Part shown: positions 51,700 through 61,075 of the stretch, piece after piece
Numbering within the stretch: the first letter of the stretch is position 1
Layout: each line of letters begins with the position of its first letter
Source: Cyanobacteriota bacterium
GTDB taxonomy: Bacteria > Cyanobacteriota > Cyanobacteriia > Cyanobacteriales > Nostocaceae
Assembly (NCBI GenBank): GCA_046045965.1
Contig: JBJOKS010000006.1
Coordinates: forward strand, 96,001-160,000
Length of the DNA: 64,000 nucleotides
Direction: 5' to 3'
Translations under genes and position numbers: made by a program
The notes under the pieces: model-generated
What the model saw: the letters and a program-made list of their open reading frames with translations, nothing else
Told to the model about the DNA's origin: nothing
Databases searched by the model: none

Positions 51700-52593
51700 C
51701 TATTCTACATTTACCCAAAAGTCTGCGGTTTTGATTTTCCCGTTGCGGTTAAATTGCATCCACATTTTATAAGTTCCTGACTGGGGTAATTTTGTATGAA
51801 ATTCGATTTTCCCATCCGTTGTATTTTTGAGTGCATGAGCATGGATATAATCGGCTTTTGTGAGAGGAGATGAGCTTTTAATAATTACTAAATGCCCTTT
51901 TTCTCCTAAGTAGGATTGTAGGTCTTTAATGGGTTGGTTTTTGTTGTCTTTTAAATCAAATGTAAAAGTTATATCTTCACCTGCTTTGATTTTTTCTTTA
52001 GATGGGTTAAAACTGACTTTAGTATCTGATATGGTTTTAGTTTTTTCATATTTAGATAAACTTTTGGGGAGAGGAACTGAACCAGGAATAGAGATTTTTG
52101 TTAATGATAAAGTTTCTGCTTGTCCCGCTGGTTTATAATCACTAAAAAGTGTATAATCTCCTGGTTGGGGAAAGTTCGCACTCACTTCAAATTTACCATT
52201 TTCTTTATAGTCTGGGTGAAGATGGTCGAAATGTTCCAAGTCATCACTAACAACTATTAAATGCATGAGTTTTTCTTGGAAGATGTCAAATTTATTGACT
52301 GGTTTTCCAGCAGTTTCTTGAAGATCAATAACTAACTTAATCGGTTGATTAGCAGATGGGTTTTTAGGTGCTGTTAATTTGGCTTGGGTGGCTATTTTTG
52401 GTTGTTCCTCATGGTGTTTGTGTTCCATTGAGTGTCCTTTATGCTCACTCATAGATTTTGTTTCTTTTTTTTCAGGTTGAGGACTATTTTCATTATGAGA
52501 AATTTGTGCTTCACCTGATTTAATTGTGGATGAACAACTAGGAGCAACTAATAATGTTGTAGCCGCGAAAATACTTACTAAAATACGCTTCAT
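51700..52593 (-). CDS. His-rich exported lipoprotein, probable heavy-metal binding
   Basis: Signal peptide with Cys; HKGHSMEHKHH; duplicated HLIVVSDDLEHFDHLHP / GHLVII...YIHAH domains. Confidence 0.75.
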   Translation of the reverse strand: MKRILVSIFAATTLLVAPSCSSTIKSGEAQISHNENSPQPEKKETKSMSEHKGHSMEHKHHEEQPKIATQAKLTAPKNPSANQPIKLVIDLQETAGKPVNKFDIFQEKLMHLIVVSDDLEHFDHLHPDYKENGKFEVSANFPQPGDYTLFSDYKPAGQAETLSLTKISIPGSVPLPKSLSKYEKTKTISDTKVSFNPSKEKIKAGEDITFTFDLKDNKNQPIKDLQSYLGEKGHLVIIKSSSPLTKADYIHAHALKNTTDGKIEFHTKLPQSGTYKMWMQFNRNGKIKTADFWVNVE

Positions 52594-52852: not shown

Positions 52853-53343
52853 ACTAGTACAGCACGGCGTAAATAAACCAACCATTCTCAATTGCTATTT
52901 ATGAAGCAATTCACTCACAGGAACATCATCACCTGACTATATTTGCATAGGAAAATGAAATTAGAATGAAGAAATTGAAGTTAAAAAATGTGATTTCAAT
53001 ATTAGGTAATAATTACGGTGTGTTTCAGGTTTATGAAGTCCACCTCTCGCAAACCTTCTTCTTCGTAAGGGTAAAGTTCGCGACAGCGCGGGTGGGGTAT
53101 TTTTGTACCTCACAAAGTTGAACTCTTCTGTATAACTTCTCTAAAGCTTCTGCTGAATTTTGTATTAATTCGCTATAAAAAGAGCCAAAATAATAAATTA
53201 GGTTACAAACAAACCTTCTGTCAACTTAGTGATAATATTCTTTTAAATGCTCAAAATATGGCTTTTAAATCTATCTTTTGATAGTAGATTTATCCCCAAA
53301 TTAGGCTTGTTGATTATATACCAAATATGTAAATTTTTGGACA

Positions 53344-53446
53344 CTTCCTATAGGAAGATGACTATAAATAGAAGTAGCTTTAAATTAATCTTGGTGTGTC
53401 GAATAACTGCTTTCTATGGAGGTTTAGCTGCGCTAAACCTTTTTTT
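53344..53446 (+). ncRNA. Putative sRNA cassette 1 (operator, -10, short RNA, terminator)
   Basis: CTTCCTATAGGAAG 53344-57; TAAATT 53381-86; AGGTTTAGC-tgc-GCTAAACCT-T6. Confidence 0.65.
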
Positions 53447-53490
53447 ATGATTTGTCGAATCTGGCAGTAATATTATTTTTTTAAATCATA

Positions 53491-53590
53491 CTTCCTATAG
53501 ACTGATTAATTTAGGAAATACAGTATCTAAATTATGAAAATATAATCTACTTCTACTCAAGGCTTGGTGCAACACCAAGTCTTTATTTTT
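53491..53590 (+). ncRNA. Putative sRNA cassette 2
   Basis: CTTCCTATAGACTG 53491-504; TAAATT 53528-33; GGCTTGGTG-caa-CACCAAGTC-TTTATTTTT. Confidence 0.6.
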
Positions 53591-53704
53591 AAATAGCATT
53601 TTCTTAATTGAAATACTGCACATTCTCAGTCATGGTAGGATTGATAATTGCCATTCTAGGGTAAAATCAGGTCAATCAATAACAGGTTTTATCATATTTG
53701 TACA

Positions 53705-53807
53705 CATCCGCTAGGTAGATGATAGGAAATATAAGTAAGCTTACATTAAGTAGATATGGTAAACACTTGGTATATATGTGGGCTTGGTTCATCGCCAAGC
53801 CTTTTTT
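53705..53807 (+). ncRNA. Putative sRNA cassette 3
   Basis: CATCCGCTAGGTAG 53705-18; TACATT 53742-47; GGCTTGG-N7-CCAAGCC-T6. Confidence 0.65.
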
Positions 53808-53927
53808 GTAGGAAAAAAGCAGTTGAGATTCTTAACTTCTCTAAGCATTCAGCAATATTATTTTTCACGTCTTAATTGTGCGGTATGTTAATTATTACTC
53901 AGATACAAGCTAAAAATGTAATTTAAT

Positions 53928-54032
53928 TATCCTTTAGGTAGTAGAAATATTGATTTATAGAAAGTATGATTCAGTCTATTAATGCCTGAAAAATGTGTAT
54001 TCACCCTGGAATAATATCTAGGGTCTTTTTTT
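53928..54032 (+). ncRNA. Putative sRNA cassette 4
   Basis: TATCCTTTAGGTAG 53928-41; TATGAT 53965-70; ACCCTGGA-N6-TCTAGGGT-C-T7. Confidence 0.55.
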
Positions 54033-54123
54033 ATGCAGACTGTTTAACTATATGACTTCTTCAAGAAGTCGTACCTCTCTACTCAGAGTCGTATTTCATA
54101 GCAGGTTTTATCAATTTTGTACA

Positions 54124-54225
54124 CACCTGAGAGAGAGATGAACTAGAAGAAAACAGAGTTTAAATTAACTATATATGGTAAACACCTGGTATATACAGAG
54201 GCTTGGCTTGAGTCCAAGCCTTTTT
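54124..54225 (+). ncRNA. Putative sRNA cassette 5
   Basis: CACCTGAGAGAGAG 54124-37 (degenerate); TAAATT 54161-66; AGGCTTGG-N7-CCAAGCCT-T4. Confidence 0.65.
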
Positions 54226-54327
54226 CATTCTTTAGATAGATACTTATTGGCTTTTATACTGTTATCTAAGAGCAAATTTAAGAGTTTGACCAAGTAATGC
54301 TTTATCAGGTTTTGGGGTATTTGGACA

Positions 54328-54433
54328 CATCCTCTAGGAAGATGATCTGTAAGCTGACTAGAACTAAATTAATTTAGTACGTTGTTAAGCACAGCAATTA
54401 TAGAGGTTTGGTTAACAGCCAAACCTTTTTTTT
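54328..54433 (+). ncRNA. Putative sRNA cassette 6
   Basis: CATCCTCTAGGAAG 54328-41; TAAATT 54365-70; AGGTTTGGT-N5-GCCAAACCT-T7. Confidence 0.65.
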
Positions 54434-54657: not shown

Positions 54658-55695
54658 ATGAGTAATCACATCCCCGACTATGATCCTAGCGGTATAGCAG
54701 AAATTAATGGCAATCTCTTGGGTTTACCTTATGATTATGAGACTGCTAATTTAATTGTCTTTGCTGTTCCTTGGGAGGTTACTGTTTCCTATGGTGCAGG
54801 AACAGCTAATGCACCACAGCGAATTTTAGATGCTTCCTATCAAATAGATTTATTTGATTTTGATAATCCTGATGGTTGGAAACAGGGAATTTATTTAGTA
54901 GAAATTTCTCAAGATATTTTAGATAAAAATAATTATTATCGTCAACAAGCCGCTAAAATAATCGCCAGACAATCTGAAGGTAAAGAAATCACAGACGCAC
55001 CAGATTTAACACCTGTACTCACAGAAATTAATCAAGCAGGTGAACAGGTAAATCAATGGTTATTTAGCCAATGTCAGCAAGCAATGAATTTAGGTAAAAA
55101 AGTGGCTGTGATTGGTGGTGATCATAGTTCACCTTTGGGTTATTTCCAAGCTTTAGCAAATCAATATTCTGATTTTGGGATTTTACATATTGATGCACAC
55201 GCAGATTTAAGAGACGCTTACGAAGGTTTTGAATTTTCCCATGCGTCAATTATGTTTAATGCACTGAAAATTCCGCAAATTTCTAAGTTAGTGCAGGTAG
55301 GTTTGCGGGATATTTGTATTGATGAAGTGGAAATAATCAACGGTTCAAATAATCGAGTTGTTGCTTATTATGATTCAGCGATCAAACAACAACAATATGC
55401 GGGTAAAACTTGGATTGATTTATGTCAGGAAATAGTAGGGAATTTACCTGAGAATGTCCATATTAGTTTTGATGTTGATGGTTTAGATCCTAAACTTTGT
55501 CCTAATACGGGAACTCCTGTTCCGGGAGGATTGGAATTAGAACAGGTTTATTGTTTATTTAGGGAAGTTGTGAAAAATGGGAGAAAGATTATTGGGTTTG
55601 ATGTCAATGAAGTTGGTGATGCAGAATGGGATGGAAATGTGGGTGCGAGGATAGTTTATAAGTTGGCGAATTTGTTGGATTTATCGCAGAAATAA
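54658..55695 (+). CDS. speB: Agmatinase/arginase-family ureohydrolase
   Basis: GGDHS, HIDAHADLR, SFDVDGLDP, TGTPVPGG. Confidence 0.85.
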   Translation: MSNHIPDYDPSGIAEINGNLLGLPYDYETANLIVFAVPWEVTVSYGAGTANAPQRILDASYQIDLFDFDNPDGWKQGIYLVEISQDILDKNNYYRQQAAKIIARQSEGKEITDAPDLTPVLTEINQAGEQVNQWLFSQCQQAMNLGKKVAVIGGDHSSPLGYFQALANQYSDFGILHIDAHADLRDAYEGFEFSHASIMFNALKIPQISKLVQVGLRDICIDEVEIINGSNNRVVAYYDSAIKQQQYAGKTWIDLCQEIVGNLPENVHISFDVDGLDPKLCPNTGTPVPGGLELEQVYCLFREVVKNGRKIIGFDVNEVGDAEWDGNVGARIVYKLANLLDLSQK

Positions 55696-56605: not shown

Positions 56606-59600
56606 ATGACAAATGAAGAATTACTAAAAATAATTCAAGAAGCTGCTAATAATAAAGTTGAAAGATTGAATCTTTCTTACCAAAAATTAGATTTTTTACC
56701 AGCAGAAATTGGACAACTTGTTAACTTGACAGAGCTTGATATTAGTGGCAACCAACTGAGCAGTTTACCAGCAGAAATTGGACAACTTGTTAACTTGACA
56801 GAGCTTGATATTAGTGGTAATAAATTGAGCAGATTGCCATCAGAAATTGGAAAACTTCACAAACTAATAAAGCTAAACATTAGCGGAGATATATTTTTTA
56901 GTAACAACATATTAAAAAGTTTACCAGCAGAAATTGGACAACTTGTTAACTTGACAGAGCTTGATATTAGTGGTAATAAATTGAGCAGCTTACCAGTAGA
57001 AATTGGAAAACTTGTTAACTTAACTGAGCTTAATCTCAGTGGCAACCAATTAAAAAGCTTGCCATCAGAAATTGGACAACTTCACAAATTGAACAGACTT
57101 AACCTTGGTGGATATGGATTTTTAATTGGCAACCAATTACAACGTTTACCAGCAGAAATTGGACAACTTGCTAACTTAACTGAGCTTGATATTAGTGGTA
57201 ATAAATTGAGTAATTTACCATCAGAAATTATTCAACTTTCTCATTTGACTATACTTAATCTTAGTGATAATCAATTAAGCAGTTTACCACTAGAAATCAT
57301 TCAACTTTCTGAGTTAAATTGTCTTAGTCTAAGTCATAACCAATTTAGCAGTTTGCCAGCAGAGATTGGACAACTTACTAACCTAAGTGAGCTTGATATT
57401 AGTAACAATCAATTAACCAGTTTGCCAGCAGAGATTGGACAACTTACTAACCTAAGCGAGCTTGATATTAGTAACAATCAATTAACCAGTTTGCCAGCAG
57501 AGATTGGACAACTTACTAACCTAAGCGAGCTTGATATTAGTAACAATCAATTAACCAGTCTGCCAGCAGAGATTGGACAACTTACTAACTTGACTAGGCT
57601 TAACCTTAGTGGATATGATGTATTAGAAAGCAATGCAGTAGCTAGTTTACCATCAGAAATTATACAACTGGCTAACTTAATTGAGCTTAATATGAGTGGT
57701 AATAAATTAATTAATTTACCACCGGAAATTATAAAAATGTCTAGTTTGACTAGACTGAATATTAGTGACAACAGACTGAACAGCTTACCAGCAGAAATCG
57801 GACAACTTACAAACTTAATGGAGCTTGATATTAGTGCTAATCAACTGACTAGATTACCAGCAGAAATTGGAAAAATATATAAATTAAAATCTTTGTTAAT
57901 AAGTAATAATCAAATAGTTGATTTACCTCCAGAATTAGGAAATATAAAATTGTCACGGCTGAATTATGGTGGTAATCCGTTAGTATCGGTGCCACCAGAA
58001 ATTCGCAAAAAAGGTCATAGAGCTATTATCAATTTTTACAAGCAACAGCAAGAACAGGAAACTGATAAAATTTATGAAGCTAAATTACTGATTATAGGTG
58101 AAGGTGGTGCTGGTAAAACTACATTATCTAGTAAAATACAGAACGAAAATTATCAATTACAAGATGAAGATTCTACAGAAGGTATTGATGTTATTCAATG
58201 GAAATTTAAAATTGATAATGAAAAGGAATTTAAAGTTAATATTTGGGATTTTGGTGGACAAGAAATTTATCATACTACACATCAATTTTTTCTGACTAAA
58301 CGCTCTCTTTATATCCTAGTTGCTGATACTCGCAAAGAAGATACAGATTTCTATTATTGGCTGAATGTTGTAGAACTATTAAGTGATAATAGTCCTTTGC
58401 TAGTTGTCAAGAATGAAAAACAAGAGCGTAAACGAGAAATTAATGAAAAACAGTTAAGAGGTGAATTTACAAATCTTAAAGAAACTTTAGCCACGAATCT
58501 AGCGAATAATCGAGGTTTAACAGAAATTATCACACATATTAAACACCACATTCAAAACTTACCCCATGTAGGAACGGAACTACCAAGAAATTGGATTAAA
58601 GTGCGAGAGGCTTTAGAAGAAGATCCGCGTGACTATATCAGTTTGGAAGAATACTTTAAAATTTGTCAAGATAATGGCTTTACCACACAAGAAGATAAAC
58701 TATTTCTCAGTAGTTATCTGCATGATTTAGGTGTCTGCTTGCACTTCCAAGAAGATGAGCTATTAAGAAAAACAGTTATTCTTAAACCTACCTGGGGTAC
58801 AGATGCAGTTTATAAAGTATTAGATAACTCAGAAGTTACTGAAAATCTAGGTCAATTTAGTGGTGAGGATTTAGTTCACATTTGGCAAGAAGAGAAATAT
58901 GCCAATATGCGGCCAGAACTTTTACGGTTGATGATGAACTTTAAATTATGTTACGAAATCCCTAGTTGTCGTGGTAAATATATTGCGCCACAATTACTAA
59001 GTCCTAATCAACCAGAATATGACTGGGATGAAAGTGATAATTTACTATTACGTTATGAATATGAATTCATGCCTAAAGGTATGCTTACTCGTTTTATTGT
59101 GGAGATGCACCCTTGGATAGAAGGACAAAATTGTGTTTGGAAAACAGGTGTTGTTTTAAATAAAGATCAAGCTAAAGCTGAGGTGGTTGAATATTATAGA
59201 TATCATAAAGGAGAAATGAGGATTCGAGTTGCCGGCAAACGCAAGCGAGATTTGCTAGTCACTGTAATGTATGAACTCGAAAAAATTCATTCATCTTATG
59301 AACGTCTGAAAGATAAAATTAAAACTCTTGTACCTTGTAATTGTAGCAGTTGCAAAGGTAATCAGTCACCACATTTTTACCCATTAAAGATACTTTATAA
59401 ATTTTTGGATGACCACAGAGATATCCAATGTCAAAATAGTTACGAGATGGTTAATGTGCATGGTTTAATTGATGATGTCAATATAAAGCAAAGCCATTTT
59501 AGACTATCTGATGTTATAACTGAAGATGAACCTAAAGTTTATACTCTTATGCCTGATAGCAAGTACAGTATTCAAGCAGAAATAGTTCAGATTACTGAGC

Positions 59601-59944
59601 AAAATCATGGTGAAGTCATCGGTAAAAAATATGCCAATGATCCTCAGTTCAAAGAAGCATTGGCTGAAATTATTCAAATACTCAATAACCTAAAATCACA
59701 GAATCCAAATGCTACTGAAGCACAAGCTGAAGATATCATCGAAGCAGAATTTATAGCAATTCAAACTAATCAGCCCAATAAATTGCAGTTGTTAAGAAGA
59801 CAGCTATTGAACCATGAACGCTGGTTCAATGGTGGTAAATCAGCTTTAAGTGAAGTAGCAAAACATTATGTAGATAGCAATGTTTTTTATAAAGCAGGAT
59901 TAGCTTTCCTGGACGGTTTTAGTGCTGATGAGGAGGATATATAA
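56606..59944 (+). CDS. Roco protein: LRR - Roc GTPase - COR with C-terminal Cys cluster
   Basis: About 19 23-aa LRRs; GEGGAGKTT, STEGID, WDFGGQ, NEKQ; COR LHDLGVCLHF; PCNCSSC...C. Confidence 0.92.
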   Translation: MTNEELLKIIQEAANNKVERLNLSYQKLDFLPAEIGQLVNLTELDISGNQLSSLPAEIGQLVNLTELDISGNKLSRLPSEIGKLHKLIKLNISGDIFFSNNILKSLPAEIGQLVNLTELDISGNKLSSLPVEIGKLVNLTELNLSGNQLKSLPSEIGQLHKLNRLNLGGYGFLIGNQLQRLPAEIGQLANLTELDISGNKLSNLPSEIIQLSHLTILNLSDNQLSSLPLEIIQLSELNCLSLSHNQFSSLPAEIGQLTNLSELDISNNQLTSLPAEIGQLTNLSELDISNNQLTSLPAEIGQLTNLSELDISNNQLTSLPAEIGQLTNLTRLNLSGYDVLESNAVASLPSEIIQLANLIELNMSGNKLINLPPEIIKMSSLTRLNISDNRLNSLPAEIGQLTNLMELDISANQLTRLPAEIGKIYKLKSLLISNNQIVDLPPELGNIKLSRLNYGGNPLVSVPPEIRKKGHRAIINFYKQQQEQETDKIYEAKLLIIGEGGAGKTTLSSKIQNENYQLQDEDSTEGIDVIQWKFKIDNEKEFKVNIWDFGGQEIYHTTHQFFLTKRSLYILVADTRKEDTDFYYWLNVVELLSDNSPLLVVKNEKQERKREINEKQLRGEFTNLKETLATNLANNRGLTEIITHIKHHIQNLPHVGTELPRNWIKVREALEEDPRDYISLEEYFKICQDNGFTTQEDKLFLSSYLHDLGVCLHFQEDELLRKTVILKPTWGTDAVYKVLDNSEVTENLGQFSGEDLVHIWQEEKYANMRPELLRLMMNFKLCYEIPSCRGKYIAPQLLSPNQPEYDWDESDNLLLRYEYEFMPKGMLTRFIVEMHPWIEGQNCVWKTGVVLNKDQAKAEVVEYYRYHKGEMRIRVAGKRKRDLLVTVMYELEKIHSSYERLKDKIKTLVPCNCSSCKGNQSPHFYPLKILYKFLDDHRDIQCQNSYEMVNVHGLIDDVNIKQSHFRLSDVITEDEPKVYTLMPDSKYSIQAEIVQITEQNHGEVIGKKYANDPQFKEALAEIIQILNNLKSQNPNATEAQAEDIIEAEFIAIQTNQPNKLQLLRRQLLNHERWFNGGKSALSEVAKHYVDSNVFYKAGLAFLDGFSADEEDI
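57351..57590 (+). repeat. Near-identical 69-bp tandem LRR-coding repeats
   Basis: About 3.5 copies of TTGCCAGCAGAGATTGGACAACTTACTAACCTAAGYGAGCTTGATATTAGTAACAATCAATTAACCAGT. Confidence 0.9.
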
Positions 59945-60232: not shown

Positions 60233-60646
60233 TTAATAAATGCGTTCATGTGCAAAAAAACTTCCATCAACATGAAACAAATTACCTAACATCTCAGCTT
60301 GTTCTTGTGTTACTTCCACCTCACCATTAATTACTTTAGCAACTAACTCACTCGAACCAAAAATAGGAACTAAATCACCTAATTCTAAATCCTGCGCTTC
60401 CAATAAATGCAAAATTCTGGAACGAGGAGTAGAAACATTTATCTGATAATGCTGATTTTCAAAATCTTCAATTAGTCTTACCAATAATTCTAAAAGTGTC
60501 TTTTCTTCTGGTGTCAAATCAGAGCGAGAAAGTAAATCTTCCACCACTGCTAAAAAATTTTCGTTTTCTTCCTCAGTTTTAATAACTCGCGGTTGATACT
60601 GAGAAAGTAATTTACTGTAAACCTCTGAATCAAAAGTGAGGGTCAT
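60233..60646 (-). CDS. higA: HigA-type antitoxin (HTH)
   Basis: PRVIKTEEENE, LLVRLIEDFE, C-terminal HTH. The start may instead be 60676. Confidence 0.85.
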   Translation of the reverse strand: MTLTFDSEVYSKLLSQYQPRVIKTEEENENFLAVVEDLLSRSDLTPEEKTLLELLVRLIEDFENQHYQINVSTPRSRILHLLEAQDLELGDLVPIFGSSELVAKVINGEVEVTQEQAEMLGNLFHVDGSFFAHERIY

Positions 60647-60929
60647 TTTTCCAGTAGTTTTTGTCATATTCTGCATGAGTTAAGACATATTTAATATAGA
60701 TGACCTGGCTCTCATAGTTAATACTAGCAATTAAACGGTATTTATTGCCTTTAATATTGAAAACTGTAAAATTACCAACAGCTTCAGCTTTGGGATAAAC
60801 AGACTGTACCTCTATTAAATTAGCCCACTCAGCTTTACTAGCAGTAAAATACCAGTCATCAAGAGCTTCACAACTATCTGCGTGTTGTTGACAATATTTT
60901 CTGAGCTTTTTCCGACTGATGACGTGCAT
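60630..60929 (-). CDS. higB: HigB-family toxin
   Basis: MHVISRKKL, VFNIKGNKYRLI, LTHAEYDK. Confidence 0.92.
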   Translation of the reverse strand: MHVISRKKLRKYCQQHADSCEALDDWYFTASKAEWANLIEVQSVYPKAEAVGNFTVFNIKGNKYRLIASINYESQVIYIKYVLTHAEYDKNYWKNDPHF

Positions 60930-61075
60930 TAAACTTGTGATTTTAACTTGTACAGCCAATAGTTTTATAGATTCGTTTCAATAATAGCATGGTCTTAAAA
61001 TTAGATGCAGTGCGATCGCCTATAGTCAACAAGCGGTAAAATTAACAATCCAACCCCAAATTGCATCTATAACCC

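Follow-up and report, generated by a model that had tools for sequence, protein, structure and literature searches.

Tandem sRNA genes with individual promoters are known from the NsiR1 array, which comprises 12 mostly identical copies driven by DIF1 promoters and located upstream of hetF; its siblings have partly different targets and act by translational repression (PMC9045159). Another described relative, RF02596 (cyano_het_sRNA), corresponds to the sRNA 4547237r of Nostoc PCC 7120 (Brenes-Alvarez et al. 2016, PMC4734099). In a third class of systems, short RNAs pair with the starts of phage mRNAs and bias the choice between lysis and lysogeny. Phage-encoded antisense control RNAs of this kind are C4 of P1 and CI of P4. 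Antisense control of temperate phages also involves Sar of P22, OOP of lambda and host sRNAs acting on VP882 mRNAs (PMC12197685).

The locus compared here with these systems lies in a window of 64,000 nt (positions 96,001-160,000 of contig JBJOKS010000006.1, Nostocaceae assembly GCA_046045965.1). A preliminary description had placed six promoter-sRNA-terminator cassettes in it, and the 14-bp boxes, 23-nt spacers, -10 hexamers and hairpins with U-tract of all six are found where it put them. In each cassette a 14-bp box is followed after 23 nt by a -10 hexamer, then by a unique part of 20-28 nt and a hairpin with U-tract, the latter with predicted folding energies of -13 to -17 kcal/mol. Units 1-6 of the window are cassette types A-F (Table 1). 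Eight terminator-like sites occur between 52600 and 54700, as against 1.0 +/- 0.9 in 50 shuffles, and seven of the eight lie in the six cassettes. Type B, with a 5' part rich in pyrimidines, has the lowest conservation of all types; cassette D has a divergent box and a terminator sequence unlike those of the other units. The claim that each unit carries a distinct 5' seed stands insofar as the 5' regions are separately conserved, but units 3 and 5 are near-identical siblings, the seeds of cassettes C and E differing in one base. Elsewhere in the window, translations alone point to a likely HigB/HigA-type toxin-antitoxin pair (60233-60959) and a putative 1112-aa leucine-rich-repeat Roc-COR-like protein (56606-59944).

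Table 1. Cassettes of the array and flanking genes, in window coordinates (sRNA ends approximate)
Feature	Position	Strand	Box	-10 hexamer	sRNA	Remarks
Cassette A	53338..53446	+	53338-53361	53381-53386	~53393-53446	terminator stem 53418-53442
Cassette B	53485..53588	+	53485-53508	53528-53533	~53540-53588	
Cassette C	53699..53807	+	53699-53722	53742-53747	~53754-53807	
Cassette D	53922..54031	+	53922-53945	53965-53970	~53977-54031	
Cassette E	54118..54225	+	54118-54141	54161-54166	~54173-54225	
Cassette F	54322..54432	+	54322-54345	54365-54370	~54378-54432	
YtkA-like gene	51700..52593	-				upstream neighbour only, outside sRNA system
Arginase-family (agmatinase-like) gene	54658..55695	+				downstream; neighbour only in closest relatives

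Tandem genes with individual promoters are common to this array and NsiR1, yet the two differ in that the NsiR1 copies are mostly identical, whereas up to eight distinct seeds occur here. As had been claimed, neither hetF nor TCCGGA accompanies the cassettes: the DIF1 motif is absent from both strands between 53001 and 54660, and the neighbours are the YtkA-like and arginase-family genes. The best score of the array against RF02399 is 24.1, with a cut-off of 39. The array would function like NsiR1-type sibling sRNA arrays, yet lacks the promoter motif, neighbour and RF02399 score that mark NsiR1. A CRISPR array would have identical repeats, variable spacers, one leader and cas genes; here a promoter and a terminator belong to every unit, and the variable parts do not change from genus to genus. 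The Rfam scan returned no CRISPR repeat, and the neighbouring proteins scanned were four.

Conservation is confined to the family in the first sample searched: a 1.5-kb region matched 14 of 24 Nostocaceae genomes and none of 16 from other families. Across the family, arrays comprise as many as eight cassette types, A-H, in a set order, each with a nearly invariant 5' part. Among 111 loci (80 taken together with wide flanks, 30 as short pieces, and our own), the order A-B-C-D-E-F-G-H is violated once. Type A is present at 53 of them, and its 5' part has a mean column identity of 0.98 in anchor-selected rows. Across types, column identity is 0.91-1.00 in the 5' parts and 0.56-0.81 in the promoter spacers of seed-anchored rows, a selection that inflates the former, although units selected by promoter show the same picture. 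Between types, the terminator stems change by compensating pairs. Counted over the 254 of 368 cassettes that have the common stem, the first variable pair is U-A or C-G (129/107, with 15 wobble and 3 broken; 236/254 Watson-Crick) and the second G-C or A-U (193/56, with 3 wobble and 2 broken; 249/254 Watson-Crick). The genes around the array differ from genus to genus, the YtkA-like and arginase-family neighbours are not conserved around it, and no partner gene is linked to it. C or E cassettes were found in 88 of 201 family genomes and RF02596 in 74 of 151. An exact 21-nt pattern of type F is present in 110 GTDB contigs, almost all of which have Nostocales titles; two that bear the type-F seed, L094 and L066, come from Aliivibrio- and Chroococcales-titled MAGs and are probably misbinned Nostocaceae DNA. 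In three genomes of one genus (L293-L295), C and E stand back to back on opposite strands, ~200 nt apart.

The same layout of box and -10 hexamer was recovered in the cassettes of relatives, so the view that promoter geometry is under conservation holds. The family motif drawn from 49 of these cassettes extends beyond the 14-bp box first noticed: it comprises TATCAG at ~-74, TGNACACATCCTNTAGGAAGATGA at -55..-32 and TAAATT at -12..-7. A matrix built from relatives alone finds six sites above 14 bits in our own genome, as against one (14.1 bits) in reversed sequence. The six are five array units and the ortholog of RF02596 on contig C33, a seventh member at another locus that the preliminary description had missed; the promoter of unit 4 falls below this cut-off. 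A generic sigma-70 scan gave no excess (10 vs 9.8 +/- 3.9), and the promoter signal is therefore the family's own motif. Relaxing the threshold to 13 bits yielded 97 sites in our own genome and 61 in the reversed control; outside the cassettes, none of them was convincing. Together with the separately conserved 5' regions, the conserved geometry supports the proposal of a co-regulated sRNA battery that arose by duplication. To our knowledge, none of the NtcA, HetR, LexA and FurA motifs matches the family box, nor does any other known cyanobacterial motif fit it. By analogy with the promoter geometry of the CRP family (PMC6166021), a box centred near -43 would suit an activator placed beside RNA polymerase. 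In genomes outside the family, too, the short core of the promoter, taken with its -10 spacing, seems commoner than in the reversed control; the regulator may predate the array.

The supposition that the battery had not been described must be withdrawn in part. Unit 6 passes Rfam family RF02596, and types F and G, together with RF02596, appear as rows of the 2016 catalogue. An Rfam match above the cut-off was obtained for unit 6 alone (40.8 bits, cut-off 35.7); unit 3 (25.2), unit 1 (23.4) and unit 5 (21.7 bits) stay below, unit 2 scores 17.7 bits on the opposite strand only and unit 4 gives no score. The true ortholog of RF02596 is G000:C33:16312-16367 (80.1 bits), on a separate contig from the array; it has the same promoter, with a spacer one base longer. 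Judged by best match and by NsiR8 lying upstream, unit 6 is not the ortholog of 4547237r but that of 5335648r. At G000:C33:16500-16790, just 5' of the RF02596 ortholog, an NsiR8-like sequence with terminator is seen, as in PCC 7120. RF02596 shares size, fold, terminator type and promoter motif with the array units, and these are paralogs carrying other seeds: the array extends RF02596 by paralogy rather than being its ortholog.

Published data cover the transcription of three orthologs of the family, among them those of two array types, and for these the predicted transcription is borne out in PCC 7120. The ortholog of unit 6, 5335648r, is Northern-validated, and it and 5335498r are separate entries of Table S3 (PMC4734099); they are the orthologs of types F and G, and their distance of 150 nt is that seen in the arrays. 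The start mapped for 5335648r in PCC 7120 falls one base downstream of 54377, near which a start had been predicted. Among the rows of Table S3 searched, none matched types A-E or H, and the accessible text of the catalogue does not link the entries of the family or give a target, regulator or array (PMC4734099). As for expression, RF02596 RNA is reported to increase in dense cultures and under prolonged nitrogen deficiency, whereas the reads of 5335648r (121/9/12/5) show neither induction on nitrogen removal nor an obvious starvation pattern (PMC4734099). A search of RNA reads gave one run with a share of 0.16 and three short contigs, which point neither way. In the openly accessible literature, as far as the available texts go (including PMC12873609 and PMC3610870), neither array nor element is described; later PCC 7120 transcriptome supplements may name the RNAs. 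The array is thus real and partly catalogued, and no description of its unity as one family or array was found.

The new part of the finding is a computed complementarity of these sRNAs to the starts of genes in a prophage-like element. Apart from its own gene, unit 3 finds its longest perfect matches in the genome as two 16-mers, one on contig C93 and one on C58: the stretch nt 4-19 of the sRNA is complementary at all 16 positions to G000:C93:3901-3916 and to the C58 copy, 5-20 nt upstream of the ATG of a 58-aa ORF in both copies of the element. A shuffled unit-3 seed finds a 16-nt match anywhere in the genome in 67 of 2000 trials, and shuffled seeds strike the element set in 2 of 5000. Perfect unit 3 matches of at least 15 nt occur in 7 of 1180 element start windows, where they measure 15-17 nt at start codons, vs 0 of 6273 host windows.

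The two copies in our own genome, G000:C93:1-5755 (L126) and G000:C58:200-9100 (L127), belong to a set of 42 that includes 40 others, picked from the listed places by score and length of contig. Gene order is conserved across the 42: the element, ~12 kb long, has an IS110-family recombinase (above cut-off), small leftward ORFs, a repressor with an XRE helix-turn-helix, a replication gene that is initiator-like by Atlas features, the gene F1 and a structural-like module. Relatives of the own-genome copies have an additional short XerA-like recombinase (below cut-off); the C93 and C58 copies lack the tyrosine recombinase, and their structural-like module is inverted with respect to those relatives. 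Of 200 family genomes sampled, 57 have the replication gene. F1 gives weak arm-binding and DUF6788-like signals in 5 of 20 members (E 0.0013 or weaker; Atlas 0.87) and no clear match in a fold search; alignment A1 contains a conserved Q-L-x-L-F-like stretch at the N-terminus, which presumably resembles a sliding-clamp binding motif. We infer that the element is a phage, and no capsid was identified among its proteins by fold search of the candidate F10 (pLDDT 77, best Z 5.6 or lower) and PHROGs, which returned only weak tail matches. Among annotated phages, searches with element proteins turned up no relative, and in IMG/VR a single one, the replication gene having none there; a scan of IMG/VR for the site pattern gave one match, in an unrelated phage, and BLAST of phage and plasmid collections chance-level rows only. 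In 18 of the 42 elements, a conserved GC-rich, hairpin-rich stretch lies upstream of the repressor gene (L126:2480-2760 and homologous regions); it has no Rfam match in the five elements tested and is possibly a structured RNA or an origin. The Rfam scan of five elements also returned tRNA-like matches of 39-40 bits at L162:4042-4142 and L196:5294-5390 (-), the opposite strand of which pairs with C and E; ARAGORN does not call them as tRNAs.

Over the start of F1 or of a small ORF preceding it, type C is predicted to pair at -21.8 to -27.7 kcal/mol in 10 of the 42 copies, whereas the best of 6273 host start windows reaches -20.4 kcal/mol; 32 copies are without a C site. As the stop of the small ORF overlaps the F1 start, the site lies at the head of the F1 translation unit whichever ORF comes first. 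Cassette E pairs with the same sites with one mismatch, and between them types C, E and G match single-base variants of one element site. A pattern scan of 201 genomes returned 65 rows vs 6 in the reversed control. The full 15-nt core accounts for 15 rows, namely seven array genes and eight element start sites; all eight non-array matches of the core plus ATG sit in elements, three of them under a different replication gene. The remaining non-array rows, among the 30 loci inspected, are unrelated. Among 30 held-out loci found through F1, four beat the host minimum, three of these being near-copies.

Further sites extend the complementarity to other operons. With full-length RNAs, the RF02596 ortholog is predicted to pair with the leader of the C93 replication operon through 9+11 pairs at -30.9 kcal/mol, a strength reached by none of 3918 host leaders; four related copies give -20 to -22. 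Part of this site, we assume, resembles common short repeats. Unit 6 has a 13-nt match before the start of the left operon of C93 (-14.5 kcal/mol), equalled by 2 of 3918 host leaders, and the sites for F and the RF02596 ortholog are weaker in the C58 copy than in C93. Twelve related copies have windows within the host top 0.2% for C (14), E (10), G (7) and the RF02596 ortholog (3), out of 335 windows with 0.7 expected; this group was defined by its C site, so that only four extra C and three RF02596 windows are fresh evidence. In the other 30 copies, pairing windows are at chance. At the F1 start of two additional copies lies an RF02596/F-like site, and the C seed of their hosts is a variant. 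Element sites are not in excess for types A, B, D and H. The exact A and D seeds plus ATG gave 12 and 27 rows in 191 genomes, none at a gene of the element set. The F/RF02596 core plus ATG gave 28 rows, at control level, with one inside an element.

Set beside the phage systems, the likeness lies in this computed complementarity. Sar, OOP, C4 and CI are phage-encoded, whereas the present set is chromosomal and vertically kept, with several sites at 13-20 nt. It sits among host genes on a contig separate from the elements, and none of the 42 elements contains a full cassette or a self-complementary RNA partner, whereas an RNA gene of the phage-encoded class would lie inside the phage it controls.

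Collectively, the data suggest that host RNAs keep a prophage-like element quiet. The reading we prefer, and to which we give an even chance, is that of a co-regulated, repressing sRNA battery kept for host regulation, to which one element subgroup has been wired so that it lies dormant when the battery is on. The ~50-nt host sRNAs, types A-H in one array and RF02596 at a second locus, would form a family fixed in a Nostocaceae ancestor for host regulation. A single activator binding the box near -43 would turn on the whole set together, probably in dense, starved or differentiating cultures. Each sRNA would consist of a terminator hairpin preceded by a short, unpaired 5' seed, pair across start regions and repress translation. 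The subgroup would offer complementary sites at up to three operon starts: one after the replication gene for C, E and G, one in the replication-operon leader for the RF02596 ortholog, and one in the leftward operon for F, C or the RF02596 ortholog. With the host regulon on, replication and recombination-associated genes of the element would be held off, and the element has most likely retained the sites, or evolved them, as a means of sensing the state of its host. The activator, the repression, the pairing in vivo and the direction of adaptation are what we infer here. Counting against this reading are the disagreement between the 5335648r reads and the rise of RF02596 RNA, the relatedness of the site-bearing elements, the absence of an excess for types A, B, D and H, the 16-nt matches of shuffled unit-3 seeds, the presumed likeness of part of the RF02596 site to short repeats, and the searches that yielded neither a firm host target nor a capsid. 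In the replication-gene tree the site-bearing copies occupy at least three places, and the F1 tree is compatible with a single origin of the site plus losses. Canonical C is present in eight of eight hosts of site-bearing elements vs 4 of 27 other element hosts; the p value of 2e-5 for this contrast presumes an independence that does not apply, five of the eight hosts belonging to one genus.

If defence came first, the array would be a hard-wired antisense immunity battery, its seeds fixed against prophage starts, the silenced elements dormant passengers and the unmatched types aimed at unsampled elements. It would account for three different RNAs matching three operon starts in one 5.7-kb element copy, for C, E and G spanning single-base variants of one site and for an array that travels as a block while its neighbours change. 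Sites weaker in C58 than in C93, and the loss of the C site from L160 and L163, are as expected of escape, and a strong conserved host target was not found. However, the seeds are nearly invariant across genera rather than racing, and C or E is present in 88 of 201 genomes, as against roughly a dozen with site-bearing elements. Escape should be easy, as start regions are free to vary and 32 of 42 elements are without a site, and the phage, plasmid and IMG/VR collections hold no matches beyond chance rows and the one unrelated phage. Host regulation with co-option by the element is favoured over defence because the seeds are invariant, because elements easily do without the site and because site-bearing elements are confined to hosts with canonical C; defence as the origin seems to us unlikely.

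Since most sRNA-bearing genomes are without an element site, host targets probably exist, although the candidates, chosen after ranking from the top of one genome's list, are weak. Pairing of F with the tftA leader is better than 100 of 100 shuffles in a 60-nt window across 29 orthologs, and not significant in a 30-nt window (28 of 200 shuffles). D with nblA, a weak candidate, exceeds 199 of 200 shuffles across 30 orthologs, and A pairs with the start of a group-2 sigma factor at -16.8 to -21.9 in five of five relatives. Four of seven host candidates failed in orthologs or had none, and no firm host target was found in this set. Candidates rejected on their orthologs were rbfA for type B, a C41 gene and a C7 ATPase for type C and a C32 amidase for type A; a C38 gene was without a clear ortholog. 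That the RNAs act on host mRNAs alone, such as those of tftA, nblA or a sigma factor, the element matches being an inherited by-product of no effect, would agree with these three pairings and with a possible single origin of the element site. It is a distinctly poor prospect, for next to F1 proteins sharing no more than 31-64% identity, and under different replication genes, the match keeps its 15-17 nt and in every case its place at the start codon, and extra sites cluster in the same element subgroup. Decoys or guides for a protein that share a hairpin handle, rather than ribosome blockers, would explain why stem sequence is kept within each type beyond the needs of termination, and are very improbable given the stems that vary by compensating pairs between types, the absence of a linked partner gene and matches that lie on the mRNA strand at start codons.

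The boldest reading is that heterocyst-forming cyanobacteria possess a dedicated regulon of about nine tiny RNAs, inherited vertically, as a fixed antisense switchboard that would silence the replication, leftward and recombination operons of an undescribed family of small prophages at once, a proposal we rate as tentative and slightly short of even. If true, it would represent either an innate RNA-based anti-prophage system of the host that works without Cas, or a phage dormancy decision delegated to host RNAs. Three orphan catalogue entries now fall under one regulon that has a promoter motif to itself, and RF02596 gains its first concrete, testable targets. An undescribed family of elements, found in 57 of 200 sampled genomes, is exposed as well. 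Should the pairing operate in vivo, a host sRNA set would control several operons of a resident prophage-like element, in cyanobacteria that include bloom formers and symbionts.
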